Shown piece by piece: positions 43,476-56,516 of a stretch of 64,000 nt of DNA. The position numbers and the translations under genes are program-made. Below the pieces are notes generated by a model. That model was not told the origin of the DNA and made no database searches. It saw only the letters and a list, made by a program, of their open reading frames with translations. The number at the start of each line of letters is the position of its first letter. The first letter of the stretch is position 1. The DNA is from an uncultured Candidatus Saccharibacteria bacterium (GTDB lineage: Bacteria > Patescibacteriota > Minisyncoccia > UBA6257 > 2-01-FULL-56-20): assembly GCA_964442965.1 (NCBI GenBank), contig CAYUBE010000001.1, forward strand, positions 3,301-67,300. The letters are read 5' to 3'.

Positions 43476-44474
43476 ATGAAAGTTACTTCAGACAAAAACA
43501 GCAAATTGCTTGCTCAGTACCCCTTTTTGTACTCGATGTTTCATCTTACGATGGAACCGCTTCACGGCAATGACGATGATGATTGCGCCATCGACGATCT
43601 TTCTATCCACGTCGAAACAGCAGACGGCACCTTAATGTTCCGAAGAGCCGAAAATGTTGGACTCAGGGAAAATAGTTGTATCTTCTTTCTTGACGGGAAA
43701 CGTAAAGGGCAGGTAATGAAACAGGGAGAATATCTCTTCGCTGTTGACGCAAACGGTAAAATCCTGAACCGTCTCGATTGGCCGAGAAACGAACATGACC
43801 GGCGGAATCAAAAAGGTGAGGTATATGGCTACCATGTCTTTTGGAAGTCCAGATATCAAAGCCATTTTGAAGAACCACTGTTTGATGAGACAAAATACCT
43901 TGTATGGATCAAGATACAATGCTGGCATAAGGATTCCAAAGATGATTCTGCCCCTCCTTATAGATTCGGAGAATTCAAGGATCGTTTGGTAGATATAACC
44001 ATTTACCAGAAACCAGAAGGGGGGTTTGATAAACTTAAGCAAGACTCTAATTTCGCTGAACATCTTTATCTCGATGAAAAGCTGATTATAAGAGCAGCGC
44101 TTGAGAGAAACATTGATATTCTCATATTAGAAAGTAGACTTACTGAGTTATGTCGGTTGTTCCAAGATGATGTTTATCAGAATGGAATGAAAGAAATTCT
44201 GGACCAAGGGAATGTTCGTGGAGCCTCAGGTAGGTTCGGTAATGTAGAAGTCCTCTGTGCTGAAATGTGCGGGTACGATCGGGTTGTGCTTGAAGACAAA
44301 AACTGTTGGATCAGTTTTCAGCTCCGTCCAGGATCATCAAATCTCTATGTGTTAGGAATGGGAGGCACCCTTCCTCAACTCAGGAATGTTATAAAAACGG
44401 TTGTGAAGGTGTGGAGTAGCGATCCTAAAAGCCGCTCCGAATTCAAACCGAATAAAGAACTATCGGTTCTGTAA
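43476..44474 (+). CDS. hypothetical protein, AT-rich island gene 1
   Basis: 332-aa ORF, lower GC than flanks, no recognised domain. Confidence 0.5.
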   Translation: MKVTSDKNSKLLAQYPFLYSMFHLTMEPLHGNDDDDCAIDDLSIHVETADGTLMFRRAENVGLRENSCIFFLDGKRKGQVMKQGEYLFAVDANGKILNRLDWPRNEHDRRNQKGEVYGYHVFWKSRYQSHFEEPLFDETKYLVWIKIQCWHKDSKDDSAPPYRFGEFKDRLVDITIYQKPEGGFDKLKQDSNFAEHLYLDEKLIIRAALERNIDILILESRLTELCRLFQDDVYQNGMKEILDQGNVRGASGRFGNVEVLCAEMCGYDRVVLEDKNCWISFQLRPGSSNLYVLGMGGTLPQLRNVIKTVVKVWSSDPKSRSEFKPNKELSVL

Positions 44475-44494
44475 GATATAGGATTCATAAAACT

Positions 44495-44528
44495 GGGCTT
44501 CGCAAATTCTGCGGAGCCCAAATTTTTT
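44495..44528 (+). terminator. intrinsic terminator GGGCTTCGCAAATTCTGCGGAGCCC + T-run
   Basis: hairpin followed by AAATTTTTT. Confidence 0.55.
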
Positions 44529-44653
44529 ATAACCAAGGCAGGAAGTACGGGCCTAGCCGGTCAGGAAAAGGTTCCGTAATGAAAAAGTGCCTTCGATTTA
44601 TTGAGGGCACTGTTTTTTTGGTTTTATTTCATATACGCTTCTCTCTCGCTTGC

Positions 44654-44679
44654 ATTCCCTTATGGCTTCCTCCAATTTT
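44654..44679 (+). repeat. island repeat R1 (partial: ATTCCCTTATGGCTTCCTCCAATTTT)
   Basis: 26-nt identity to start of R2. Confidence 0.5.
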
Positions 44680-44762
44680 GGAAATTTACTATCCCGAGTC
44701 GGGCTCGCTCCATAATCAGCCTTGTATTTTGAGTACATCATAAAGCAATCTGGCCCAAAGTA

Positions 44763-44779
44763 TGGTATAATGAGACATG
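44763..44779 (+). promoter_or_regulatory. extended -10 promoter TGGTATAAT with ATG 6 nt downstream (leaderless)
   Basis: TATAAT 44766-44771; ATG 44777. Confidence 0.4.
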
Positions 44780-45061
44780 GAAACCTTGGAGAAAAAATCG
44801 TTATTCTGGGATGTTCAAGCTTTGAATCCCGAGAAAGAAAAGAATTTTATCATTACGCGTATCTTGAATTTCGGCGATACGGATGACTTTGCATGGGCCA
44901 TGCAATTCTACGGCCGTGATAAGGTCGAAGAGGTTCTGCAGAAGAGCACGCAATTGGACAAGAAATCGTTTTCTTTTTGGTGTCGGTTTTTCACTATTGA
45001 TCCATCAACATGCATCGAGAAGCAATCAACGAATCAACCGAGCGCGTTCTCGCAAAGATAG
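44777..45061 (+). CDS. hypothetical small protein (possible cognate partner/antitoxin of downstream NTase)
   Basis: 94 aa, overlaps downstream NTase gene start by 52 nt in another frame. Confidence 0.35.
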   Translation: METLEKKSLFWDVQALNPEKEKNFIITRILNFGDTDDFAWAMQFYGRDKVEEVLQKSTQLDKKSFSFWCRFFTIDPSTCIEKQSTNQPSAFSQR

Positions 45062-45624
45062 CCGGTCACGTCAAGGACGATTTTTATCTTGCGGGTGGCA
45101 CGGCGCTCGCGATCCAGTTGGGCCATCGGTTGTCCATAGACTTGGATTGGTTTTCGGCAAAAGATTTTCCGCGCACGGCTCTCCGGGAGACGCTTTCCGC
45201 GGTGGGGCGTTTTGAGTTGACCGGAGAAGAAGAGGGGACGATGCACGGCCTCCTGGATGACGTGCGCATCAGTTTTTTACGGTATGCGTATCCATTACTT
45301 TTCCCGTTAGTTGCCTTTGAGGGTGTGGAGCTTGCTGATGAGCGCGATATCGCCGCCATGAAGCTCGACGCGGTATCCTCACGGGGCAGCAAGAAGGATT
45401 TCATCGATATTTATTTCCTGCTCAAAAAATATTCCTTGCCGGAGCTCTTAGAAATATTTGAAAAGAAGTATGCTGGTATAAAGTTCAATCGGCTCCATAT
45501 CCTCAAGAGTTTGTCATATTTTGAAAATGCGGAGGATGAGCCGATGCCGATTATGCTCGAGCCTGTTATATGGGAGGACGTTAAAAGAAAGATCGTTGCG
45601 GAAGCCGATCAGATTTTGAGGTAG
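45010..45624 (+). CDS. AbiEii/AbiGii-family nucleotidyltransferase (type IV TA toxin-like)
   Basis: FYLAGGTALAIQLGHRLSIDLDWF motif (GGTAL ... R.S.DiD) characteristic of AbiEii NTases. Confidence 0.6.
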   Translation: MHREAINESTERVLAKIAGHVKDDFYLAGGTALAIQLGHRLSIDLDWFSAKDFPRTALRETLSAVGRFELTGEEEGTMHGLLDDVRISFLRYAYPLLFPLVAFEGVELADERDIAAMKLDAVSSRGSKKDFIDIYFLLKKYSLPELLEIFEKKYAGIKFNRLHILKSLSYFENAEDEPMPIMLEPVIWEDVKRKIVAEADQILR

Positions 45625-45709
45625 TATTTTCCCTTGATGATCGATTTCGTCACAGACTAGAAATGCGTGGTCATTGACGCAGCTCCTTTCCATTGATCTT
45701 CTGCTTAGT

Positions 45710-45772
45710 ATTCCCTTATGGCTTCCTCCAATTTTCTTAAATCTTCTTTGAATTGGTTCCAAATGACACACG
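45710..45772 (+). repeat. island repeat R2 (ATTCCCTTATGGCTTCCTCCAATTTTCTTAAATCTTCTTTGAATTGGTTCCAAATGACACACG)
   Basis: ~80% identical to R3; contains CCAATT...AATTGG inverted repeat. Confidence 0.55.
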
Positions 45773-45925
45773 CATAGTGCACTGTGCACTGTACGGGATT
45801 TTGACTGCTAAAATCCTGAATCAGCTCGAATACACAACCTAATTTTGTGGTTTCAAATCCTTGGCTTCGAATCAGGTGAATACATGCTCGCGAGTGGTTG
45901 TTTTATCTTTTTGACGTGATATCCT

Positions 45926-46642
45926 TTGAATATGAAAATGGAAGGGTTCGGCGGTCCTATCGGTAGGAAATATGCAGAAATAGACCTCGCTGGCCGAAAG
46001 GCATTGAGTGAGGGGGAAATACAGAAATTTGAGGGCTTTCCTGAAAATCTCAAAAAACGTTTCAATGTTTCGGCGCGATTCACTTCTGATTCAGAAAAAG
46101 AATTTGCCGAGCGCGTGGTGCGACCCGTTAAAGATATCGCGGCACAGTTAGGCATTGATTTTATTGTTGCAGGCGAAGATTTCCCTCTTCACAGCACTAT
46201 GCTAGAGGGGCTTTATCAGGGTGCCGATGAAGCGGAGCGCCAAACATTATTTTCTGATTTAAAAGATAACATTTCTTTTCAGGAGCGACTCAATGCCCTC
46301 AATGGTCTCGAAGTTCCCTACAAATATCTCCTTATGGACAGGGGAAATATAATTCTCAATTCGGTTGAGATTCCTTATAGCATTCTTGAAATTCGAGAGT
46401 TCCTTACGAAATATTATGCGGAGCAAAAACTGAAACCCCTTGCGATGGACAATATCCTCCATATTAGTGCCGCACGCATGATCAAATTACCGGAAGAAGA
46501 ACGGGAAAAATCTTTTACCGAGTACAAAGGACGCATGGTCGAACTGAGGCATTCGATCTCTTCGACGCCGTTGTCCCTCAAGATGGACCATTTCTATTCA
46601 GGGTCAACACTTCAACTGTTAAAAAGCTCCTCGGAGAGTTGA
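45926..46642 (+). CDS. 2H phosphoesterase superfamily protein (LigT-like)
   Basis: two H-x-T/S-x motifs (PLHSTML and ILHISAA) ~95 aa apart; 238 aa. Confidence 0.5.
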   Translation: MNMKMEGFGGPIGRKYAEIDLAGRKALSEGEIQKFEGFPENLKKRFNVSARFTSDSEKEFAERVVRPVKDIAAQLGIDFIVAGEDFPLHSTMLEGLYQGADEAERQTLFSDLKDNISFQERLNALNGLEVPYKYLLMDRGNIILNSVEIPYSILEIREFLTKYYAEQKLKPLAMDNILHISAARMIKLPEEEREKSFTEYKGRMVELRHSISSTPLSLKMDHFYSGSTLQLLKSSSES

Positions 46643-46861: not shown

Positions 46862-46924
46862 ATTCCTTTATAGCTTCCTCAGATTTCTTGAGATCTCCTT
46901 TGAATTGGTTCCAGCCGACACACG
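46862..46924 (+). repeat. island repeat R3
   Basis: ATTCCTTTATAGCTTCCTCAGATTTCTTGAGATCTCCTTTGAATTGGTTCCAGCCGACACACG vs R2. Confidence 0.55.
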
Positions 46925-47040
46925 TCCGCCGCATTATTCTTTTCATAAGCGGAAGGTTTCATCTTGGACAATCTGAGCGGAGGTGAGACATCTCTTTTAA
47001 TAAGCGGAGGGTTTCTTTTCTGAAAGATTATTATCTCTGG

Positions 47041-47103
47041 CAAAAAGGATGTCCGTCCTGCGGGACCGTGAGTTGAAGCCCCGTAGGATGGACGTCCTTT
47101 TTG
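47041..47103. terminator. long imperfect inverted repeat AAAAAGGATGTCCGTCCTGCGGG ... CCCGTAGGATGGACGTCCTTTTT (bidirectional terminator-like)
   Basis: ~22-bp arms with G-U wobbles, A-run/T-run flanks. Confidence 0.5.
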
Positions 47104-47198
47104 CGTCTCCATCTTCTGGAAAACGGGAAAACCGGAGCCCTTGCGTTATTTTTTGGTATAGTGTACAATATATGCATAAAAATAAATCATCTTAATCA

Positions 47199-48233
47199 AT
47201 GGCAACACTTCCCAAGATTATTGCGAATGCACTGGCAGAATTAAGCCCTCGACAGAAGGATGTCGTTACGGCTCGTTTTGGGCTTGAAGGAAAAAAAGAA
47301 GGCGCGACGCTTGCGGCAATCGGCGACCGGCTTCATATCACACGGGAACGCGTGCGGCAGATCGAAAAAGGAGCGATGGCTACGGTAGCGAAGAATGTTC
47401 TGAAGCATGATGAGACCGTTGCCACGCTTGCGAAAATCAGGAATTATATTGCGGGGAAGGGGGGAGTTGCCGGCAAGGCCGATGTCGCAACGTATGCTGC
47501 AACGCTCGTCAAGGGGATGGGTGTCGCCCAGCTCGATTTTCTGGCCGAGGCGTCGGGAACTTTTTCGGCGCGCCGCGATGACGATGATTTCGTGCCGCTC
47601 TACGTGAGCGATAACAAAGACTGGAAAGCTGCAAAATCTTTCACGGAAAAGTGGACCGGAATGCTTCGTTCCCGCCGTGGGCAGGTCTTCTCGGGATCGT
47701 ATCAAGCGGAGCTCGCGAGCTTCGTAAAGGAGAACGCCGTTCCATCCGCCGTCGCGGAAAATTATCTTGGCCTCACGAAGCGTCTCGGGAAAAATCCCTA
47801 TGGCGATGCGGGACTTTCGGATTGGCCGGAGATCAGCCCGAAGACCGTTCGCGACAAGATTTACCTCGTTCTCAAAAAGAACGGCGATCCGCTCCATTTC
47901 GAGAGTATCGCCCGGCGCATCAATGAAGTGAAATTCGATGACAGCCGGAAAGCACTAGGTCCGACAGTTCATAACGAGCTCATTAAGGATGATCGGTTCG
48001 TTTTGGTTGGCCGCGGCATGTACGGCCTTCGCGAGCATGGCTACGAGCCAGGAATCGCGCGCGAAGTGATCGCTAAAGTACTCAAGGAGAAGGGACCGAT
48101 GCTTGCGAAGGACGTCGTCATGCACGTGACCAAACAGCGTTTCTTTAAGCCGAATACGGTAGTCATCAATCTCCAAAACAAGACTCTGTTTGAACATCTG
48201 CCGGACGGCAGGTATCGCGTGCGGGAAGCATAG
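47199..48233 (+). CDS. sigma-70 region-4-like HTH domain protein with uncharacterised C-terminal domain
   Basis: LSPRQKDVVTARFGL...TLAAIGDRLHITRERVRQIEKGA region-4 HTH; 344 aa. Confidence 0.55.
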   Translation: MATLPKIIANALAELSPRQKDVVTARFGLEGKKEGATLAAIGDRLHITRERVRQIEKGAMATVAKNVLKHDETVATLAKIRNYIAGKGGVAGKADVATYAATLVKGMGVAQLDFLAEASGTFSARRDDDDFVPLYVSDNKDWKAAKSFTEKWTGMLRSRRGQVFSGSYQAELASFVKENAVPSAVAENYLGLTKRLGKNPYGDAGLSDWPEISPKTVRDKIYLVLKKNGDPLHFESIARRINEVKFDDSRKALGPTVHNELIKDDRFVLVGRGMYGLREHGYEPGIAREVIAKVLKEKGPMLAKDVVMHVTKQRFFKPNTVVINLQNKTLFEHLPDGRYRVREA

Positions 48234-48317
48234 GTTCGGAGTCGAACTCCGGAGATCTCGGGCGGCTTTGTTCGGAGTTCGACTCCGAACGGGTGTGATC
48301 CGTGTTACAATAATCTC

Positions 48318-49607
48318 ATGTTCGCGGCGCTTCAAGGCATCATTCAGGGAATTATGAATAGCGTCTTCGTCGTATGGAGCGAGGTGTGGTGGATTGTTCT
48401 GCCGCTCATCGCGTTTTTTATTTTCTGGGATTTTTGGAGGTTCTACCTTCATGTACGTTTTGTGAAGGGGATTTCATGGAAATTGCTTGAGATCAAGATT
48501 CCGAAAAACGTTCTCAAGACGCCGAAGGCCATGGAGCAGATCTTCGCGGCCGCGCATGCGCCGTATTCTTACGGCATTATACCGTTCGATAAATATTGGA
48601 AGGGAAAAGAGGAATTCTGGATGTCATTCGAGCTGGTCGGCCATGCCGGCGAGAGCCATTTTTATCTCCGCCTTCCCAAGGAATTTCAGCACATGATGGA
48701 ATCCGCGATCTATGGCCAGTATCCCGAAGCCGAGGTCGTGGAGGTGGAGGATTACCTTGAGGATTTTCCGGAGATCCTGCCGAATGCCGAGATTGACATC
48801 TCCGGTTTTGAAGAGATGCTGCGCCACGAGAACTATCTTCCCATCAGGACCTATCTTTCCTTCGAAGATCCGACCGAGGAACGCCGCCTCGATACCATTG
48901 CCCCGATCATGGAGATCATGTCGAAACTGACGAATGACGAACAAGTCTGGTATCAGCTCGTCATCCGGCCGACCGGCGAGGAATTCAAGAAGGAAGGGGA
49001 AAAGAAAATCAACCAGATGCTCGGCGTCGAGTCGAAGGAGAAGAAGAAGGGCATCCTCGCGGAATTTTTTGGCCTCGGCGTTACGCTCGGTGAGGTGATT
49101 AAAGCTCCCTTCGAGCATCCCAATATGGAGGTGAAGAAAAAAGACGAAGTGCCGAAAATGATGCGTTTCATCCTTACACCGGGAGAGAAAGACATGACAG
49201 AGGCGATCCAGGAGAAAATATCGAAGATCGCATTCGAGACAACGCCCCGCTTCGCGTTTCTCACGAAGCAGGGGAATCCTGATCCAGGCATGATGTCGGC
49301 GCTTCACGGGTTTGTCCGCCAGTTCAATACACAGAACCTGAACTCGCTGAAGCCGAACGGCGAAAAGACGACGGCGTCGTACGCCGTGCGTGGCATGTTC
49401 AAGCAAACCCGCATTCGTTGGCGGAAGCGGATCTTTTACGAGGAGTATCGCCATATCGTTCCGAGTGCGAAAAAAGCCATACTTAACATTGAAGAACTGG
49501 CGACCATTTATCACTTCCCGATTGCAACGGTTTCTACAACTGAACTCGAAAAGATCTCGTCGCGCAAGGGCAGCCCGCCGGCGGGAATTCCGACCATCGA
49601 AGAATAA
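48318..49607 (+). CDS. hypothetical membrane protein (N-terminal double TM, large cytoplasmic domain)
   Basis: 429 aa, positioned directly upstream of coupling-protein-like ATPase. Confidence 0.5.
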   Translation: MFAALQGIIQGIMNSVFVVWSEVWWIVLPLIAFFIFWDFWRFYLHVRFVKGISWKLLEIKIPKNVLKTPKAMEQIFAAAHAPYSYGIIPFDKYWKGKEEFWMSFELVGHAGESHFYLRLPKEFQHMMESAIYGQYPEAEVVEVEDYLEDFPEILPNAEIDISGFEEMLRHENYLPIRTYLSFEDPTEERRLDTIAPIMEIMSKLTNDEQVWYQLVIRPTGEEFKKEGEKKINQMLGVESKEKKKGILAEFFGLGVTLGEVIKAPFEHPNMEVKKKDEVPKMMRFILTPGEKDMTEAIQEKISKIAFETTPRFAFLTKQGNPDPGMMSALHGFVRQFNTQNLNSLKPNGEKTTASYAVRGMFKQTRIRWRKRIFYEEYRHIVPSAKKAILNIEELATIYHFPIATVSTTELEKISSRKGSPPAGIPTIEE

Positions 49608-49711
49608 TGCTCATTTCGTGCTACGACACGGGATCCAAAAAATCCTGGGTTCTTGCCTGCCCGGCGGTAGGCCGTTTTTCAACGGAGTGACAGAATGCTA
49701 TCATTATTCTC

Positions 49712-51352
49712 ATGGACGACACGCAGGACCTTACACCGCTCGGTTTCTATAATTTTCGTAACCAGCAAAAGAAATTCGGCATCAAGCTCGACGATCGGCG
49801 ACGGCATATCTATATCGTCGGAAAAACCGGCGTCGGCAAGACGACGCTCCTTGAGAATATGACGATTGCCGATATGCGGTCTGGCAAGGGCGTCGCGATC
49901 GTCGATCCGCACGGCGAGTTCGCCGAAAAGATGCTCGACTTCGTGCCGGAAGAGCGGCTTGATGATGTGATCTACTTCGATCCGTCCGATATGGAATATC
50001 CGATCGCATTCAATCCAATGGAACAGGTGGGCACGGAGTACCGGCACCTCGTGGCATCGGGGCTCATGGGTGTGTTCAAAAAGATCTGGGCCGATGCCTG
50101 GTCGGCGCGCATGCAGTACATTTTGAACAACACCCTGCTTGCGCTTCTTGAATATCCCGGCGCGACGCTCCTCGGCATTCTCCGCATGTTCTCGAACCAG
50201 GATTATCGGAAGCAGATCGTGAGCAATCTGAAGGACCCCGTCATCAAAGCTTTTTGGGAAGACGAGTTTTCGAAATACAGCCAGCGGTTCGAGACCGAAG
50301 CCCTCGCCGCGATCCAGAATAAGGTAGGACAGTTCGTTTCGAATCCGCTCGTGAGGAATATTCTTGGCCAGCCGCGCTCGTCTTTGAATATGCGGGATAT
50401 CATGGACTCGGGAAAGATTTTCATCTGCAACTTATCGAAGGGGAAGATCGGCGAAGATAACTCCGCGCTTCTGGGTGCCATGATCATCACGCGGATGCAG
50501 CTTGCCGCCATGTCGCGCGTCGATACATCCGAAGTAAAACGCCGCGATTTTTTCCTGTACGTCGATGAATTCCAGAATTTCGCGACGGAATCTTTCGCCA
50601 ACATTCTCTCCGAAGCCCGCAAATACCGCCTGAGCCTGGTTCTTGCGCACCAGTACATCGGTCAGCTCGTCACGGGTGACAGCACGTCGGTCCGCGACGC
50701 CGTGTTCGGCAACGTGGGGACGATCATTTCGTTTCGCGTAGGTGCGGCGGACGCGGAATTTTTGGAAAAAGAATTTATGCCGGAATTTTTACAGAACGAT
50801 CTCGTGAATCTTGCGAAGGCGAACGTGTATATCAAACTGATGATCGACGGCGTCGCGTCGCGGCCGTTTTCGGCAGAGACCTTGCCGCCCCAGGGCATGC
50901 CCCTCGAATCGTACCGCGACGTGATCATCAAGAATTCCCGCGAGCACTACGGAACACCGAAGAACGTCGTTGAATCGCGCATTACGGGCGAGTGGCGTTC
51001 CGGCCCAGGCGACGCGGTGGCGGCAAAAGTGGAACAGCGGAAAGAAAGGCGTCTCTCGGAGGTGCTGGTTCCCAACGCCCAGGCGAAACCATTCGTTCCC
51101 GGCGTGCGCAACGTGAGAGACGTCGAACGGCGAACGTTCGTCCGGCCCGTGTCCCCGGTGCAAGCACCGGCGCCGACGATGGTCCCGCAGGTAAAAAAAG
51201 AAACCATTCCAGAAGAAGTCTCGGAACTCGAATCCCGTCCCGAGATGCAGGTTCAGAAGAAAGTCTTACATCCGAATGTCGACATTGAATCATTGAGGCG
51301 GGCCATCACGGAATCGCTGAAAAAGAAGGACGCGGACGGCGGAGAGAAATAA
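49712..51352 (+). CDS. TraG/TraD/VirD4-like (T4SS coupling protein-like) P-loop ATPase lacking N-terminal TM domain
   Basis: Walker A GKTGVGKTT, VAIVDPHGEF, IYFDP...FNP, Walker B FFLYVDEFQNF, ...LVLAHQYIGQL. Confidence 0.65.
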   Translation: MDDTQDLTPLGFYNFRNQQKKFGIKLDDRRRHIYIVGKTGVGKTTLLENMTIADMRSGKGVAIVDPHGEFAEKMLDFVPEERLDDVIYFDPSDMEYPIAFNPMEQVGTEYRHLVASGLMGVFKKIWADAWSARMQYILNNTLLALLEYPGATLLGILRMFSNQDYRKQIVSNLKDPVIKAFWEDEFSKYSQRFETEALAAIQNKVGQFVSNPLVRNILGQPRSSLNMRDIMDSGKIFICNLSKGKIGEDNSALLGAMIITRMQLAAMSRVDTSEVKRRDFFLYVDEFQNFATESFANILSEARKYRLSLVLAHQYIGQLVTGDSTSVRDAVFGNVGTIISFRVGAADAEFLEKEFMPEFLQNDLVNLAKANVYIKLMIDGVASRPFSAETLPPQGMPLESYRDVIIKNSREHYGTPKNVVESRITGEWRSGPGDAVAAKVEQRKERRLSEVLVPNAQAKPFVPGVRNVRDVERRTFVRPVSPVQAPAPTMVPQVKKETIPEEVSELESRPEMQVQKKVLHPNVDIESLRRAITESLKKKDADGGEK

Positions 51353-51355
51353 TCT

Positions 51356-52090
51356 ATGCGGTTTCATATTGTTACGATCTTTCCCGAAATGTTCGATTCG
51401 TATCTCCGAGAATCGCTTTTTAAGCGTGCGGAAAAGAATAAGATCGTTGCGGTGCGTACGTATAACCTCCGTGATTTTACGAACGACAAGCGTCGTAAGG
51501 TAGATGATCGTCCGTTCGGCGGCGGGCCGGGAATGGTGTTGCAGATCAAACCGGTGTTTGACGCCGTGAGGTTCATTAAGAAAAAAGAAGCAAGAAAAAA
51601 GAAGCAAGGGAGGGTGCGAGTGATTCTATTTTCGACGCGCGGGAAGAAATTAAATGCGAAAGAAGCGAAACGATTAGCGAAATATAACGATCTTATTCTG
51701 ATCTGCGGCCGTTATGAAGGCGTCGATGAACGCGTGGCAAAATACGTGGCCGACGAGGAAATTTCGATCGGGGATTACATTCTCTCCGGCGGCGAATTGC
51801 CGGCGTTGGTGCTCATGGAATCCGTCAGCCGATTTCTGCCTGGATTTTTAGGAAAGGAAGAATCGCTCGAAGAAGTGAACGGTTCGTTTCCGACCTACAC
51901 CCGCCCCGAAGTTTTTCATCCATCATCCTCGTCTCGTTCTCCCTTGTCGTTCCGGCCTCGTGTCCGGGCACGGGGTAAACTCCAGCCGGAACCCAGACAT
52001 AAAAAGGCCTGGCTTGTTCCTAAAGTTCTCCTGTCCGGCGACCACAAAAAAATCGCTGAATGGCGAAAAGCAGAATCAAAACCAAGCTAG
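51356..52090 (+). CDS. trmD: tRNA (guanine37-N1)-methyltransferase
   Basis: MRFHIVTIFPEMF..., SPOUT knot motifs. Confidence 0.9.
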   Translation: MRFHIVTIFPEMFDSYLRESLFKRAEKNKIVAVRTYNLRDFTNDKRRKVDDRPFGGGPGMVLQIKPVFDAVRFIKKKEARKKKQGRVRVILFSTRGKKLNAKEAKRLAKYNDLILICGRYEGVDERVAKYVADEEISIGDYILSGGELPALVLMESVSRFLPGFLGKEESLEEVNGSFPTYTRPEVFHPSSSSRSPLSFRPRVRARGKLQPEPRHKKAWLVPKVLLSGDHKKIAEWRKAESKPS

Positions 52091-52607
52091 AGCTAATTTG
52101 AATCTTGCCAATATCAGAATCGTTCGGACATCGTTGCATACACCCCCGTGCCAGGAAAGCATTTGAGATAATAAAATGGACCATCGTGGTGATGGTCCCG
52201 CTTAGAAGCATTAAATTTCTGGTCTAGTGATGCGGAGCACATGCAATCACTATTATTATCGTCAAGATTCCGCCCGCAATGGAGCCTAGGACGATACACC
52301 AGCCCTCAATACTAGATAAGAGCTCGTCCTTTGCGAAAAGGAAAAGCTCTTCAAATATTTTTGGGTCGATTGCTTCTCGAAAGAATTCTTTGACTTCTTC
52401 TTTCATTTGGAAATTCTCCTTTTTATTCTGTTAAAAAGAATACTACTTTAATTTAACAATGTCGAATTTCCGAAGTAGTCGGTTTCTATTTGCCATCAAA
52501 ATCCTGTAAATATCGTCCGCCCCGTGTAGGATCTTTGGCTTGAGTCGCCTTTTACCTGTCATTTTGCTATGATGCTCATATAGATATTTGAGGAAATTAT
52601 TTTTATA

Positions 52608-53468
52608 ATGGATTTTGAAAAGGAACAATTCTCAGCGACTCCGGAAAGGGTGGGCTCCGACCCAAGAGAACAGGAAAATGATTACATTCCTGAATCGGAG
52701 GAGGAACAGCGTTCGGCGGAGACTATCTGGGCCGATCTCTATGATACAGAGCTTGAGCCGTGCAAAGAATTTCTTAAGAGCAGGGTGCTGATCGATAGGG
52801 TCCTCGCGTATGCGAGGACGGCCGCTGAGAGCGGTGCGGGAGGGAGTACGTGGAGCGCGACTGATGCATTCTGCGCCCTTTCCGCTCTTCATTCCTTGGA
52901 TCTTCCGTTGACCACGGAAGAAGAAAACAAGATGAATGCCTTTCTCGAAAACCGGGCTCTCATTGAACACGCATTCACGTACGTAAAAACGAGCGCAAAG
53001 AAAGAGGGTCTGAGCGCCGCAAAAACGCTCTGGACGCTCTCTGCGTTCCGTTCCCTGAATGTTCAATGTACTCCAGCAGAAGAAGAAAAGATAAAATCCT
53101 TTTTTGAAAATTCCGTTTTGGTTGATCACGCGCTTGCTTATGCGAGAAGCGAGGCTGCACGAGGCATTGAAGGAGATTCAAAACACGCCGCGAGCGCGTT
53201 CGAGACCTTGTCAGCCCTTCATTCTCTGAAGGTGTCGTTAGCTCCCGAACAGGAAGACAAGACCACTGCTCTTCTGGTGAATCCCGATCTTATCAACAAG
53301 GCATTTGCATTCGCAAAGAATAGCGCCAAGGAGGGTGCGAGGGGACATATCGCGGATGCCGTGGGGGCATTTGAATCGCTCGCCTCTCTCACTGCTGTCA
53401 GGGATTATCTTCGCGGAAAAGGAGCGGCGCTTGACGAGCGAGCTTCCTCTGACAAGGCCACTTCGTGA
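52608..53468 (+). CDS. hypothetical protein with four ~45-aa tandem repeats
   Basis: repeat unit ...A.A..G.......A..AF..LSALHSL.(V/L).L..E.E.K...F. Confidence 0.5.
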   Translation: MDFEKEQFSATPERVGSDPREQENDYIPESEEEQRSAETIWADLYDTELEPCKEFLKSRVLIDRVLAYARTAAESGAGGSTWSATDAFCALSALHSLDLPLTTEEENKMNAFLENRALIEHAFTYVKTSAKKEGLSAAKTLWTLSAFRSLNVQCTPAEEEKIKSFFENSVLVDHALAYARSEAARGIEGDSKHAASAFETLSALHSLKVSLAPEQEDKTTALLVNPDLINKAFAFAKNSAKEGARGHIADAVGAFESLASLTAVRDYLRGKGAALDERASSDKATS

Positions 53469-53502
53469 TATTTTCTCAGAGTTTTAACATATCGTAAAAC
53501 GC

Positions 53503-53829
53503 ATGAAGAAAACCTGCCTCATTTTTCTGAACGCGCTTCCGGTGCTCGTCATGATCGGTTTTATACCGGTCGTCGTGAATGATTATGCACTGACGTTGAT
53601 AGATATTCTTATCATCATCGCCGCATTCATGGTGCAGCGGAAACGTAACGATCTGCTGATTCTGGGTTTCGGATTTATCATCATGATCATCTCTGAGGCT
53701 ATTTTCGTATCCACCAAGGTGGAGACCTTTGATCGGAAGAGCCTCTTGGGGCTGATGCCGCTCTGGTTACCGTTCCTGTGGGCCTATGGGTTCGTCGCGA
53801 TCAAGCGGTCGATTGAAATTCTGGGTTGA
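53503..53829 (+). CDS. small hypothetical membrane protein
   Basis: 108 aa, three TM segments. Confidence 0.4.
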   Translation: MKKTCLIFLNALPVLVMIGFIPVVVNDYALTLIDILIIIAAFMVQRKRNDLLILGFGFIIMIISEAIFVSTKVETFDRKSLLGLMPLWLPFLWAYGFVAIKRSIEILG

Positions 53830-54168
53830 CGTTTATATGCGGTTATCGCTTGATAAATAGTTATATTTCATTATACTGTAGGCAGTAGTATTTTTTCAAA
53901 AATATGAGGCAGAATCATGGAATTATCAGACGGCTCCAGTGCGGGGCTAAACCAACTCCTTGATCTGCTTAGAGAGATCAGGGAAGGGGTTGTCGCAAAA
54001 CGAATTCCTATGAAAGAAGCTTTTATGCTTTTTCGGGAACTTCGTAAGGACGATATCGCAGGAGGTCTCTCTCCTGATAAAGTTATCGGTATCCTTAAGG
54101 ATTTTAACAAGCGGTATCAGTTATTCCTCGACTGATACTTTTAACTTAAATTTAATCTATCGTCTGTC

Positions 54169-55644
54169 ATGCTGAGCGGCATGGCAGATTTTTTTATAGG
54201 GGATGTAGCTTTCGCGGCAGCGCTCGGTTTTCTCGCGGGAATTTTCGCCGCGGACCTTGGATGGAATTTTGCGGCATTCTCCGTCGGTGTTATTTTAATT
54301 TTCCCGATATTGAAATATGGCGCATCACTAGCGGCACGAATGGCTGCGGTCTTCGCGGCGATCATGCTTCTCGCATCCTTTGCAGGAATTTATTATTTTC
54401 ATTTTTTCCTGAATTGGCGCGCGGCTGGCACACGGTTGCCGGATGGAAAATCTTCTTTTCAGGCAACGGTTGACGACGAACCTATTGCTTCGGAAAAATA
54501 TCTTTCGTTTTCCGCGAAGCTCCAGCCGCCGTTTTCCGGAAATATTTCCGTATTCGCATCGCCTGACAGCAACGTTCAGTATGGCGATCTCGTGAATATT
54601 TCGGGAACGGTTGAACCGCCCCGCGATGCGGGCGAAACATCGGCAGTATTCCCTAAAAATATCACGATTATTTCCCGCAACAACGGTTTTTGGTTAACAG
54701 AGGAATTACTGCATTTCAAAGTGGCGGTCAACGAAAAATTCGACGCGTTCTTATCGCAGGACGCCGCGGCGCTCCTTGGTAGCCTGACGCTCGGCGGAAC
54801 AACCGGCATGAGCGGGGAATTGAAGAACGAAATGACCGTCTCGGAAACGCTTTACGTTACCTCAATGTACGGCTATAAAATGGCAATGATCGTCATGGCT
54901 CTTGAGGCGGTTTTGGCGGGTTTTATTGCGCGTCGCATCAGATTCGGCATTGAGATTTTTGTAACCGTATTTTTTCTGCTGATGTCGGGCGGCAGTATTT
55001 CCGCGCTCCGCGGCGGCGTGATGGCGTGCGCGCTGATATTTGCCAAAGAAACGGGGCGGATTTTTTCCAAGCGAAATACGCTCGCGCTCACTGCCGTGGG
55101 CATTGCTTTGTTTGATCCGATGGCCATCGTGCAGGCTGGATTTTTGTTTTCCTTTGCGAGCGTCGCCGGCATGGCGCTCCTTGCTAAACCGATTCGAAAG
55201 TTTCTGCGGCTCGGGGAAGGAAAGGGGATGTTGGCGTGGAGAGATGCCGTTGTTCTGAGCTTGGCGTCGCTTCTGCCGATTATTCCGCTCGTGAGCGCGA
55301 TGTTTGGATCGTTCTCGATGACGGCGGTTTTCGCGAACGTTCTGATCGCGCCCGCGATCCCGCTCGGCATGATCGCAGGAACTGCGCTCGCAGCGGCAGG
55401 TTTTCTTTCGCCGTACCTCGGATTTTTTGTCGCCCGCATGGCGGGCGTGGTGCTGGGCTATACATCCTGGGTGATTGGATTTTTCGCGATTCACCCGCTT
55501 CCCTTGCCTTTTTCGTTTTCTAACACACCGTCATTTTTAGTCTATTATGCTGTTCTCGTTCTTTTTGCGCATATCTATCGCACACCGGCAAAACTTCACT
55601 CAGGGATGCGCGCGGGATCCCATAAAAAAACAACAGCACCATAA
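54169..55644 (+). CDS. comEC: ComEC/Rec2 competence channel protein (DUF4131 + competence domain)
   Basis: polytopic membrane protein with ComEC-typical TM core; no MBL domain in this ORF. Confidence 0.85.
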   Translation: MLSGMADFFIGDVAFAAALGFLAGIFAADLGWNFAAFSVGVILIFPILKYGASLAARMAAVFAAIMLLASFAGIYYFHFFLNWRAAGTRLPDGKSSFQATVDDEPIASEKYLSFSAKLQPPFSGNISVFASPDSNVQYGDLVNISGTVEPPRDAGETSAVFPKNITIISRNNGFWLTEELLHFKVAVNEKFDAFLSQDAAALLGSLTLGGTTGMSGELKNEMTVSETLYVTSMYGYKMAMIVMALEAVLAGFIARRIRFGIEIFVTVFFLLMSGGSISALRGGVMACALIFAKETGRIFSKRNTLALTAVGIALFDPMAIVQAGFLFSFASVAGMALLAKPIRKFLRLGEGKGMLAWRDAVVLSLASLLPIIPLVSAMFGSFSMTAVFANVLIAPAIPLGMIAGTALAAAGFLSPYLGFFVARMAGVVLGYTSWVIGFFAIHPLPLPFSFSNTPSFLVYYAVLVLFAHIYRTPAKLHSGMRAGSHKKTTAP

Positions 55645-55646
55645 CT

Positions 55647-56516
55647 ATGCAGAACAAAAAATCGGAGACGTGGTTTACGGTCGCCGTCGTTGCGTTCTGT
55701 ACACTTGACGTTCTTTGCTGGTTTTCGATCATAGCCGGACGGCCGATTGCCGCAGCACGAGCATATTTTCTCGATGTCGGCCAGGGCGACAGCGAACTCG
55801 TAGTTTTTCCCGGGGGCATCACGATGATGACGGACGCCGGCCCGACGGATGCGGTGCTCGGTAGTTTAGAAAAGGCATTGCTGGGAAAACGATATATTGA
55901 TCTTGCCCTTATCACGCACCCACAACTTGATCATTTTAATGGTTATAATTTCATCCTCGATCACTACGATGTCGGAGCATTTCTCTATAACGGACGCGAC
56001 GATTCAGACGTTGCGGCATGGACCGATCTGAAAAATAAGATCGTGGCGAAGCATATTCCGTTCATTACACTTGCGGCAGGGGACAGCGTACACTATGGGG
56101 AAGACGAGGTTGATATTTTGTCTCCCGACCGTGAATTTGCCCAAAGCGCGGAATTGAACGATACCGGCCTCGTCGAGATGATACGGACAGGCGACTTCCG
56201 CGCGCTCTTCACGGCGGATATCGGCTTCAACGTCGAGGACTGGCTCGTCGCCAACGTAAAAGATCTTCGCGCAGATGTCTTGAAGGTGCCGCATCATGGA
56301 TCAAAATATTCGTCTGGTGACGCGTTTCTCCGCGCCGTGGATCCGTCGGTTGCGGTGATTGAAGTTGGTGCAAAGAATACGTATGGCCAGCCCGGTGCGG
56401 CAACCTTGGCGCGTATCGCATCATCCACGCACGCGGAAGTTTTTCGTACCGATCAAAACGGCAACGTAGGGATATCCTATGAAAATGGGAAATTGAATGT
56501 CCAGAGAGAAAAATAG
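55647..56516 (+). CDS. metallo-beta-lactamase-fold protein (ComEC C-terminal domain encoded separately)
   Basis: N-terminal TM helix, FLDVGQGDS, HPQLDH, VPHHGSKYS MBL motifs; starts 3 nt after comEC stop in another frame. Confidence 0.8.
   Translation: MQNKKSETWFTVAVVAFCTLDVLCWFSIIAGRPIAAARAYFLDVGQGDSELVVFPGGITMMTDAGPTDAVLGSLEKALLGKRYIDLALITHPQLDHFNGYNFILDHYDVGAFLYNGRDDSDVAAWTDLKNKIVAKHIPFITLAAGDSVHYGEDEVDILSPDREFAQSAELNDTGLVEMIRTGDFRALFTADIGFNVEDWLVANVKDLRADVLKVPHHGSKYSSGDAFLRAVDPSVAVIEVGAKNTYGQPGAATLARIASSTHAEVFRTDQNGNVGISYENGKLNVQREK

Follow-up and report, generated by a model that had tools for sequence, protein, structure and literature searches.

A putative AbiE/MenAT-like toxin-antitoxin cassette with a non-AbiEi partner beside a LigT-like phosphoesterase gene in a Patescibacteria genome

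In a Patescibacteria (CPR) genome, two units that adjoin each other within a variable stretch of low GC content are very probably unrelated. One is probably a mobile AbiE/MenAT-like toxin-antitoxin cassette whose partner gene is not of the AbiEi type; the other is a stray gene for a LigT-like 2H phosphoesterase. The sequence-only reading of this region had proposed that the nucleotidyltransferase (NTase) of the cassette and the 2H enzyme synthesize and degrade a nucleotide signal, or form a reversible nucleotidylation system. Its assignments of the individual proteins were borne out; the pairing was not. All three open reading frames that it had called were present on the + strand of the window (the whole 64-kb stretch of DNA that was analysed). 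The features of the region are as follows.

44654..44679, + strand: repeat copy 1, 26 nt, ATTCCCTTATGGCTTCCTCCAATTTT; precedes the DUF6922 ATG by 98 nt
44756..45631, + strand: DUF6922-AbiEii cassette block, delimited by nucleotide homology; promoter-like box, both genes and 7 nt past the stop codon
44763..44771, + strand: extended −10-like box TGGTATAAT, read from the sequence; ends 5 nt before the DUF6922 ATG
44777..45061, + strand: DUF6922 protein, 94 aa, putative antitoxin/partner (open reading frame and Pfam)
45010..45061, + strand: out-of-frame overlap of the DUF6922 and AbiEii genes, 52 nt (conserved geometry)
45010..45624, + strand: AbiEii/DUF1814-family NTase, 204 aa, putative toxin (Pfam, PADLOC and motifs)
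45632..45930, no strand: spacer between the cassette and the 2H gene, holding repeat copy 2; no homologue in relatives of either unit
45710..45772, + strand: repeat copy 2, 63 nt; upstream of the 2H gene
45926..46642, + strand: 2H (LigT-like) phosphoesterase, 238 aa from TTG (motifs, family profile matches and predicted fold)
46862..46924, + strand: repeat copy 3, 63 nt; follows the 2H gene and precedes a sigma70_r4/HARE-HTH gene

Comparison with the nearest relatives revealed purifying selection on all three genes (pN/pS about 0.16–0.22; 0.114/0.699 for AbiEii). The GC content is 0.42–0.47 across positions 43–47 kb, compared to about 0.50–0.56 in most adjacent 1-kb windows. An ABC-transporter gene and the sigma70_r4/HARE-HTH gene border the site, and a hairpin lies at 47040–47104. 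Scans with Pfam, NCBIfam, PADLOC and PHROGs assigned no known family to orf332, which lies directly upstream. An Mza defence system was considered at the downstream sigma70_r4/HARE-HTH protein and rejected: the MzaA matches span sigma region 4 only and score 49.5 bits against an 800-bit cutoff.

The 204-aa protein matched the Pfam AbiEii family (PF08843, E 1.1e-13, 52.2 bits versus a cutoff of 22.5) and 13 PADLOC AbiEii models (best E 3.3e-8), in agreement with the sequence-only reading. Motifs I/II (hGG ... R-x-S/T-x-D-h-D) and III (K..A...R...KD..D) of Pol-beta NTases are present as LAGGTAL (G29-G30), R40-L-S42-I-D44-L-D46 and K118...R125...K129-D130...D133, and 30 homologues all retain residues G29, G30, R40, S42, D44, D46, K118, D120, R125, K129, D130 and D133. 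Judged by its profile matches, the enzyme is of the DUF1814/AbiEii type and not a cGAS/DncV-type signal synthase (CD-NTase). Typical AbiEii proteins are roughly 250–300 aa long, and the putative toxin of the window is short at 204 aa. Searches of the PDB with this protein, both as a single sequence and as a profile, matched no solved MenT or AbiEii structure, and residue equivalences were therefore taken from motif matching and not from structural alignment. In AbiEii (R63/T65) and MenT3 (R76/S78) an R-x-S/T phosphoacceptor element is followed by the catalytic Asp (PMC11375011; bioRxiv 10.64898/2026.01.19.700257); by motif correspondence, R40/S42/D44/D46 of the window protein fit the phosphoacceptor pattern of AbiEii T65 and MenT3 S78. 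Characterised DUF1814/AbiEii members modify tRNA, adding nucleotides to 3′ ends (PMC7450476, PMC10435456).

The overlapping 94-aa open reading frame, which had been suggested as the partner of the NTase, matched Pfam DUF6922 (E 3.4e-15), and the association recurs: besides the window, 8 further genomic contexts show the partner-first bicistronic order, DUF6922 then AbiEii with a 52-nt overlap. The DUF6922 stop codon TAG falls within AbiEii codons K16-I17, and synonymous divergence is ~0.35 in the overlap (both frames) versus ~0.70 outside it. The AbiEii gene being in the −1 frame, a fusion of the two products by −1 frameshifting was considered and rejected: the overlap lacks a slippery heptamer, the match to Pfam AbiEii begins at residue 15, and AbiEii M1 is invariant. 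The DUF6922 protein is predicted to fold as a small bundle of four helices, followed by a disordered tail that is conserved (residues 81–94). No AbiEi antitoxin (COG5340, a winged HTH plus a C-terminal domain) was found directly upstream of the NTase gene, and Pfam, PADLOC and sequence comparison, including that with MenA1 and MenA3, detected no similarity of DUF6922 to AbiEi or any MenA antitoxin. It is therefore synteny that points to an antitoxin role for DUF6922. A literature search found no paper mentioning this family.

In 7 of the 8 compared cassettes, the window included, a TGnTATAAT box lies 5–6 nt 5′ of the ATG. Its position implies that the cassette would be transcribed from a promoter of its own into a leaderless or near-leaderless mRNA. 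Scans for sigma-70 promoters and for terminators gave results no better than those for shuffled sequence. In blastn, the window was 76% identical to L015, L016 and L017 over exactly 44756–45631, with homology ending at both edges. In the related genome L015 the cassette is located elsewhere, immediately behind the MBL gene, and is more conserved (79% identity to the window for AbiEii and 70% for DUF6922) than TrmD (65%), MBL (55%) or ComEC (32%). The flanks of the other cassettes vary and include genes for a DUF805 protein, an ABC ATPase, a Fic protein, a pectate-lyase-like protein, an LCAT-like protein with a VirD4-like protein, an MNT-HepT pair, and an OLD nuclease with an integrase and an N6 methyltransferase; several of these contexts are defence or mobile ones. 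The cassette is a common, self-contained two-gene unit of toxin-antitoxin-like organisation, with a putative toxin and a putative antitoxin.

AbiE (AbiEi-AbiEii; Streptococcus agalactiae/Lactococcus) and Mycobacterium tuberculosis MenAT are DUF1814 NTase toxin-antitoxin systems of type IV/VII. The cassette resembles them in its PF08843 NTase with the GG motif, the R-x-S/T-x-D-x-D motif with its phosphoacceptor position and the K...R...KD..D motif, in the small partner gene that lies upstream of the toxin gene and overlaps it, and in its variable, defence-rich contexts. Unlike in these systems, the 94-aa partner, a helical DUF6922 protein, lacks the winged-HTH AbiEi (COG5340) domain and shows no similarity to MenA1 or MenA3. 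The conserved 52-nt dual-coding overlap and the apparently leaderless start of the mRNA are further differences and unusual expression features; the subfamily hardly occurs outside Patescibacteria, and its toxicity is putative.

We propose that unit 1 (44756–45631) is an autonomous DUF6922-AbiEii cassette controlled by the TGnTATAAT box that abuts the start codon. By analogy with AbiEii and MenT toxins, the NTase would most likely add nucleotides to tRNA 3′-CCA ends and thereby block aminoacylation, and DUF6922 would most likely hold it inactive. DUF6922 may do so by binding the NTase and inducing auto-phosphorylation at Ser42, the conserved serine of R-x-S-x-D-x-D, which is how unrelated antitoxins act on MenT1, MenT3 and AbiEii. 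On this model the cassette would be a mobile toxin-antitoxin or abortive-infection element that is carried from one genomic site to another. It is very abundant in Patescibacteria, with more than 2374 homologous AbiEii clusters at 90% identity, the named ones being from this group, and its partner is unrelated to the characterised AbiEi/MenA antitoxins. If DUF6922 neutralises the toxin, it would represent a further antitoxin class for DUF1814 toxins and would test the generality of antitoxin-induced auto-phosphorylation. Unit 2 (45931–46635) would be a stray copy of a LigT-like 2H phosphoesterase gene that came to lie beside the cassette by chance.

The product of unit 2 had been read as a 2H phosphoesterase from two HxT/S motifs. 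Databases call the protein as 236 aa from the ATG at 45932, a start that is more likely than the TTG of the 238-aa version. The profile families that had been expected were found in part: PF08843 was recovered for the 204-aa protein, but the 238-aa protein alone had no match in Pfam, NCBIfam, PADLOC or PHROGs, nor among PDB sequences in single-sequence and profile searches. The 2H assignment therefore draws on family-level profile matches, motif conservation and the predicted fold. Among 128 homologues, at E values up to 0.1, LigT_PEase was matched by 66 (best E 4e-9), 2_5_RNA_ligase2 by 8 and AKAP7_NLS by 8. Two H-x-T/S-hydrophobic motifs about 80–90 residues apart are conserved across the homologues and correspond to the proximal PLHSTML (H89-S-T-M-L-E) and the distal ILHISAA (H179-I-S-A-A-R184) of the window protein. 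In the 128 members for which residues were counted, out of a family of about 275 representative clusters, conservation is 127 for H89, 122 for T/S91, 124 for H179, 123 for T/S181 and 126 for R184. Structure prediction yielded a 2H fold with both motifs on β-strands, the placement that the sequence-only reading had proposed to check. On the strength of motifs and model, the window protein is a genuine 2H phosphoesterase with the complete catalytic set H89, T91, H179, S181 and R184.

In ThpR the extended motifs are a proximal HxTxxF and a distal HxTxxR, with Phe48 stacking on the nucleobase (PMC4201822). The distal HxSxxR of the window protein fits the HxTxxR catalytic signature of that enzyme (PMC4201822). 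Unlike in ThpR, its proximal motif is HxTxLE, the Glu being found in 81 of the 128 members and Phe standing outside the five commonest residues at this position; since HxTxLE replaces HxTxxF, the protein is LigT-like and not of the ThpR subfamily by the extended-motif criterion. Its sequence identity to ThpR/LigT (E. coli RNA 2′,3′-cyclic phosphodiesterase) and Pyrococcus PH0099 is about 11%. Unlike these enzymes, it has a conserved 44-residue N-terminal extension, in which G23 is nearly invariant, and an extra invariant R157, and its homologues are encoded in sugar-phosphate/GDPD clusters, not in RNA-repair contexts.

The 2H family is a Patescibacteria-restricted, uncharacterised LigT-like branch that is otherwise found within sugar-phosphate/glycan clusters. 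Its members are flanked by NTP_transferase, GDPD, HAD, NUDIX, Fe-ADH, methyltransferase and glycosyltransferase genes, none of which was found within the 64-kb window; the closest homologue, 78% identical, lies in a glycosyltransferase/methyltransferase cluster. The substrate is probably a phosphodiester or cyclic phosphate, whether at RNA ends or in a sugar or polyol phosphate, and the consistent presence of the family in CPR sugar-phosphate/GDPD clusters hints at a non-RNA cyclic phosphate. No member was found in PHROGs or in IMG/VR viral contigs. Acb1 and the poxvirus cGAMP phosphodiesterases, viral 2H enzymes directed against CBASS and cGAS, are no closer to the window protein than are cellular LigT, AKAP18 and USB1. 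Unlike these viral enzymes, the window protein is the product of a cellular gene from a glycan-cluster family and has no CBASS-type partner.

The association between the NTase and the 2H gene was not observed in other genomes, an outcome that the sequence-only reading had itself named as one that would refute its proposal. A 2H-family profile run over the cassette loci detected no 2H open reading frame in any of the 8 other DUF6922-AbiEii contexts. Conversely, AbiEii and DUF6922 profiles, the former built on close relatives and liable to miss very divergent AbiEii genes, detected neither gene near 2H homologues at about 16 places, about 11 of which have enough flanking DNA to judge; together with the 8 cassette contexts this is a modest sample. 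An 11-sequence alignment retrieved related 2H loci; a scan of genome contigs with a 3-sequence alignment found none. No AbiEii was present among those immediate neighbours that were run through Pfam. The only contigs carrying both the cassette and the 2H gene were near-identical copies of the window's genome from the same species. At the nucleotide level the two units are separate homology blocks, 44756–45631 and 45931–46635, with a 300-nt spacer that has no homologue, and a literature search found no paper tying AbiEii to 2H enzymes. The NTase and the 2H enzyme are thus not a conserved pair, their adjacency is very probably incidental, and the region is therefore not a nucleotide-signalling module.

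In a module of that kind the AbiEii NTase would make a nucleotide messenger or nucleotidylate a target, and the 2H enzyme would degrade the messenger or reverse the modification, the two acting as a single defence or anti-defence module. Besides the lack of co-occurrence and the spacer between the homology blocks, this is opposed by the tRNA-modifying activity of characterised DUF1814/AbiEii members and by the absence of the 2H family from PHROGs and viral contigs. A PADLOC scan of five proteins (the three locus proteins, orf332 and the downstream sigma-like protein) recognised no signal-responsive effector or sensor, the only matches being AbiEii and the weak sigma-region MzaA. Of the marks of a cyclic-oligonucleotide signalling module, CBASS-like or Acb1-type, none was seen here: the NTase is not a CD-NTase, there is no effector among the proteins scanned, and the linkage is not conserved. 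We regard a messenger or nucleotidylation module as extremely improbable; as the signalling pair does not hold, the locus is not a candidate defence system to carry forward. A local, lineage-specific recruitment would make the 2H enzyme, as an RNA-end-healing activity or one like that of the 3′ exonuclease USB1, a second antidote or recovery factor in this genome only, trimming or repairing tRNA 3′ ends extended by AbiEii. Here too the NTase–2H link is conserved nowhere else examined, and nothing points to a specialised sub-lineage, since the 78%-identical homologue sits in the glycosyltransferase/methyltransferase cluster. The proximal Glu in place of the nucleobase-stacking Phe48 of ThpR (PMC4201822) also argues against it, and the similarity of the predicted structure does not single out USB1 among 2H enzymes. 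Such a recruitment appears very unlikely, and we give equally little credence to a three-component toxin/antitoxin/RNA-repair module in which the 2H enzyme is the recovery factor for AbiEii and the repeat-sharing units are co-regulated.

The repeat that these units share occurs only at 44654, 45710 and 46862, three copies in 64 kb against 0.03 expected, and each copy lies upstream of a transcription unit, three consecutive units being involved. Copy 2 reproduces copy 1 exactly in its first 26 nt and shares 81% identity with copy 3 over 63 nt. The 26-nt repeat upstream of both units and the 63-nt copies flanking the 2H gene could stem from joint regulation or from insertion events that the units have in common. 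The units would then be biochemically independent island cargo, co-acquired or co-regulated, and the repeat would be their shared operator, promoter element or recombination scar. The number and placement of the copies, the low GC content and the presence of orf332, a gene without known family, just upstream are in keeping with this. On the other side, the repeat is absent from the loci at which other genomes carry the cassette or the 2H gene and has neither a folding signal nor an Rfam match, no recombinase was identified beside it in the partly annotated window, and the same arrangement was found only in contigs of the same species. Co-acquisition or co-regulation is, on balance, unlikely. 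The repeat data also led us to reject an integron-like cassette array, for which an attC-like inverted repeat or fold signal was lacking as well. The preferred reading, an autonomous cassette beside a stray 2H gene, leaves the 26–63-nt repeat unaccounted for.

A small two-gene cassette with a Pol-beta-fold NTase is also the organisation of MNT-HEPN (MntA-HepT) systems, in which the NTase is the antitoxin and AMPylates the HEPN RNase toxin. Unlike MntA, the window NTase is of the AbiEii/DUF1814 type and has no HEPN partner. An MNT-HepT pair adjoins the DUF6922-AbiEii cassette in L039.

The locus is a DUF6922-AbiEii cassette of a type common in Patescibacteria that lies beside a stray LigT-like 2H phosphoesterase gene. 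The features of the region are as follows.

43476-44474, + strand: orf332, 332 aa, directly upstream of the cassette
44654-44679: repeat copy 1, 26 nt, upstream of the cassette
44763-44771: extended -10-like box TGnTATAAT, with the DUF6922 ATG following after 5 nt
44777-45061, + strand: DUF6922 gene, 94 aa
45010-45624, + strand: AbiEii/DUF1814 nucleotidyltransferase (NTase) gene, 204 aa, sharing 52 nt out of frame with the DUF6922 gene
45010-45061: out-of-frame overlap of the cassette genes, with equivalents in loci L015, L017, L018, L022, L037, L039 and L041 of other genomes or metagenomes
45710-45772: repeat copy 2, upstream of the 2H gene
45926-46642, + strand: 2H gene, 238 aa from TTG
46862-46924: repeat copy 3, upstream of the sigma70_r4/HARE-HTH gene
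within 47199-51352, + strand: sigma70 region 4 and HARE-HTH protein, 344 aa
within 47199-51352, + strand: 429-aa protein, no Pfam family
within 47199-51352, + strand: VirD4/TrwB-like coupling ATPase, 546 aa

The 204-aa protein was confirmed as an AbiEii/DUF1814 NTase by its match to Pfam PF08843 (52 bits, cutoff 22.5; E 1.1e-13). It also matched 13 PADLOC AbiEii models, and the motif quoted for it in the sequence-only reading, LAGGTAL...R40-L-S42-I-D44-L-D46, is found in the sequence. Homologues form more than 2374 clusters (90% identity clustering), almost all of them 203-212 aa long; source-named clusters come from Patescibacteria lineages, including Wolfebacteria, Doudnabacteria and Moranbacteria, and are annotated 'nucleotidyl transferase AbiEii/AbiGii toxin family protein'. 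Residues G29, G30, R40, S42, D44, D46, K118, D120, R125, K129, D130 and D133 are invariant in 30 homologues. The R-x-S-x-D-x-D segment resembles AbiEii R63/T65 and MenT3 R76/S78, segments that contain the phosphoacceptor and catalytic Asp (PMC11375011; bioRxiv 10.64898/2026.01.19.700257); these equivalences are motif-based only, since no solved structure was reached from the 204-aa protein by single-sequence or profile search.

The overlapping 94-aa ORF, put forward earlier as a possible antitoxin or partner, proved to be a real gene and a conserved partner of the NTase. It matches Pfam DUF6922 (E 3.4e-15), is under purifying selection (pN/pS 0.159/0.712 in comparison with L015) and stands before the AbiEii gene in all the other contexts studied. 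A Pfam search of the 94-aa protein (E up to 1) detected no AbiEi family, the PADLOC scan gave no match, and DUF6922 was mentioned in no paper found by literature search. The cassette is a variant of AbiE/MenAT that differs in its uncharacterised partner.

Eight further independent cassette contexts were examined (listed as L015/16, L017, L018-21, L022/23, L037/38, L039/40 and L041-43). In all of them DUF6922 is followed by AbiEii with an identical 52-nt overlap, which is kept down to 47%/63% protein identity and places the DUF6922 stop codon within AbiEii codons 16-17. Synonymous divergence is ~0.35 in both frames inside the overlap compared with ~0.70 outside, a halving expected from dual coding. 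There is no Shine-Dalgarno sequence before the AbiEii ATG. The TGnTATAAT box stands 5-6 nt before the DUF6922 ATG in seven of eight cassettes compared, window included (the others being L015, L017, L018, L022, L037 and L039), suggesting that the cassette has its own promoter and a leaderless transcript.

Nucleotide homology to L015 and L017 covers exactly 44756-45631 (76% identity) and ends at both borders, and the flanking genes are different in every context. Neighbours elsewhere include DUF805, an ABC ATPase, Fic, an MNT-HepT pair, a pectate-lyase-like protein adjoining a RelB/YafQ pair, an LCAT-like protein with a VirD4-like protein and Y1 transposase, and an OLD-family nuclease with LexA, integrase and N6 methyltransferase. 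The order TrmD ... ComEC - MBL is kept between L015 (1-4615), a locus from a related genome, and the window (51356-56516); in L015 the cassette directly follows the MBL gene, a position at which the window has no cassette. That the cassette proteins (AbiEii 79%, DUF6922 70% identity) are better conserved between the two loci than TrmD (65%), ComEC (32%) and MBL (55%) suggests that the cassette has moved horizontally. Its architecture, conservation and varied flanks are properties of a mobile toxin-antitoxin cassette.

Judging from family membership and synteny, the cassette is most likely an AbiE/MenAT-like toxin-antitoxin or abortive-infection system. MenT1, MenT3 and AbiEii are models for nucleotide addition to tRNA 3′-CCA (PMC7450476, PMC10435456, PMC11162799; bioRxiv 10.64898/2026.01.19.700257), and by analogy the NTase would extend 3′-CCA ends of tRNA with nucleotides, which would block aminoacylation. 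The three model toxins are bound by structurally unrelated antitoxins and neutralised through auto-phosphorylation of an active-site Ser/Thr (PMC11375011); DUF6922 may similarly bind the NTase and induce auto-phosphorylation of S42. The 2H enzyme most likely acts independently of the cassette.

The motifs quoted for the 238-aa protein, PLH89STML and ILH179ISAA, are present. The protein alone had no match in Pfam, NCBIfam, PADLOC or PHROG, nor in a PDB sequence search, so that the anticipated LigT/2H assignment by Pfam stood at the level of the family and not of the single protein. Only 3 relatives came from a word-indexed search, whereas exhaustive profile searching recovered 275 representative clusters (179 at E up to 1e-10), nearly all of 220-250 aa. 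Pfam LigT_PEase is matched by 66 of 128 family members (E up to 0.1; best 4e-9), and fewer match 2_5_RNA_ligase2, AKAP7_NLS or HVSL/USB1. Catalytic positions are kept in most of the 128 (H89 in 127, T/S91 in 122, H179 in 124, T/S181 in 123, R184 in 126), as are R157 (128), P150 (122) and G23 (125). An AlphaFold model (pLDDT 68, core ~80) places both His at beta-strand starts. Together, the profile matches, motif conservation and modelled His placement identify a bona fide LigT-like 2H phosphoesterase, as had been proposed, which is probably active. Its family is divergent and has a 44-residue N-terminal extension that is conserved. The distal H179-x-S-x-x-R184 corresponds to the ThpR HxTxxR signature, whose Arg is essential, while the proximal HxTxLE lacks the nucleobase-stacking Phe of ThpR HxTxxF (PMC4201822). 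Public gene calls start the gene at ATG 45932 (236 aa), which is preceded, at a distance of 6 nt, by a weaker box, TGaTATCCT.

The neighbourhood of the NTase and 2H genes is not conserved elsewhere: AbiEii and DUF6922 profiles matched no ORF in any 2H-homologue locus, and the 2H profile matched none in any cassette locus. The pair was found only on contigs near-identical to the window, copies of the same genome. The homology blocks are separate, that of the 2H gene with L001 being limited to 45931-46635, and the 300-nt spacer 45632-45930 had no match in the other loci compared. Thus, the proposed functional module, in which the pair would handle a nucleotide signal or reversible nucleotidylation, is not supported. 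The 2H family has no relatives in IMG/VR viral contigs and no PHROG family, which speaks against the 2H gene having come from phage anti-defence of the Acb1 type.

The closest 2H homologue (L001, 78% identical) lies between Methyltransf_21 and WavE genes in a cluster also containing Glyco_transf_8, NTP_transferase, RuBisCO-like and glycosyltransferase genes; that of L006 (46% identical) adjoins an acetate kinase fragment on a short contig. Four further genome loci (Moraniibacteriota, Liptonbacteria, one mislabelled or other MAG) and 13 metagenome loci, some of them duplicates, were recovered. The usual neighbours of the 2H homologues are GDPD, sugar-phosphate nucleotidylyltransferases and HAD phosphatases: in Pfam scans GDPD adjoins the homologue in L009, L026 and L034, and NTP_transferase adjoins or is near it in six or more loci. 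NUDIX, inositol monophosphatase, Fe-ADH, a GatZ-like protein, Methyltransf_23 and an HD domain also occur. From the cluster context, the substrate may be a cyclic phosphate or phosphodiester other than RNA. Given these GDPD, nucleotidylyltransferase and HAD neighbours and the missing base-stacking Phe, a sugar/polyol cyclic phosphate or phosphodiester would be at least as likely a substrate as RNA>p. None of the neighbouring genes identified in the Pfam scans occurs in the 64-kb window. The family was consistently seen in Patescibacteria sugar-phosphate/glycan clusters (L001, L008-L011, L026, L029, L030, L032, L034, L035), with a KdsC-like protein among the HAD phosphatases and a 375-aa methyltransferase.

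The sole feature linking the cassette and the 2H gene is a repeat, of which 3 copies occur in 64 kb against 0.03 expected. Copies 1 and 2 (at 44654 and 45710) have the 26-nt ATTCCCTTATGGCTTCCTCCAATTTT without a difference, and copies 2 and 3 (at 45710 and 46862) share a 63-nt version with 81% identity. Copy 1 precedes the cassette, copy 2 the 2H gene and copy 3 the sigma70_r4/HARE-HTH gene, which are three successive transcription units. The repeat gave no fold signal or Rfam match and has no copy at the cassette or 2H loci of other genomes; it may be a cis element common to the units, or a scar left by recombination. That both units were co-acquired or are co-regulated, with no biochemical coupling, would fit this placement; we consider it unlikely. 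GC content is 0.42-0.47 over 43-47 kb, compared with ~0.50-0.56 in most neighbouring 1-kb windows. This stretch includes the ORFan orf332, for which Pfam, NCBIfam, PADLOC and PHROGs all gave no match; two hairpins resembling terminators come after it (44494-44520 and 44586-44611).

The 2H and sigma70_r4/HARE-HTH genes are 556 nt apart, and a very stable 25-bp hairpin is predicted in this gap (47040-47104; dG -47 kcal/mol, z -7.6 relative to shuffled sequence). No T-run comes after the hairpin, its single Rfam match, to a miRNA, is at chance level (E 0.76), and a pair of 23-nt direct repeats (46938-46960 and 46993-47015) immediately precedes it. An MzaA assignment of the sigma-like protein was rejected, matches being limited to region 4 and far below cutoff. 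An ARAGORN 'tRNA-???' call with a 2-nt anticodon at 3513-3586 (+), opposite the 3472-5181 (-) ORF, is probably a false positive. In L037 a gene similar to that of the VirD4-like ATPase precedes the cassette at a distance of ~1.1 kb.
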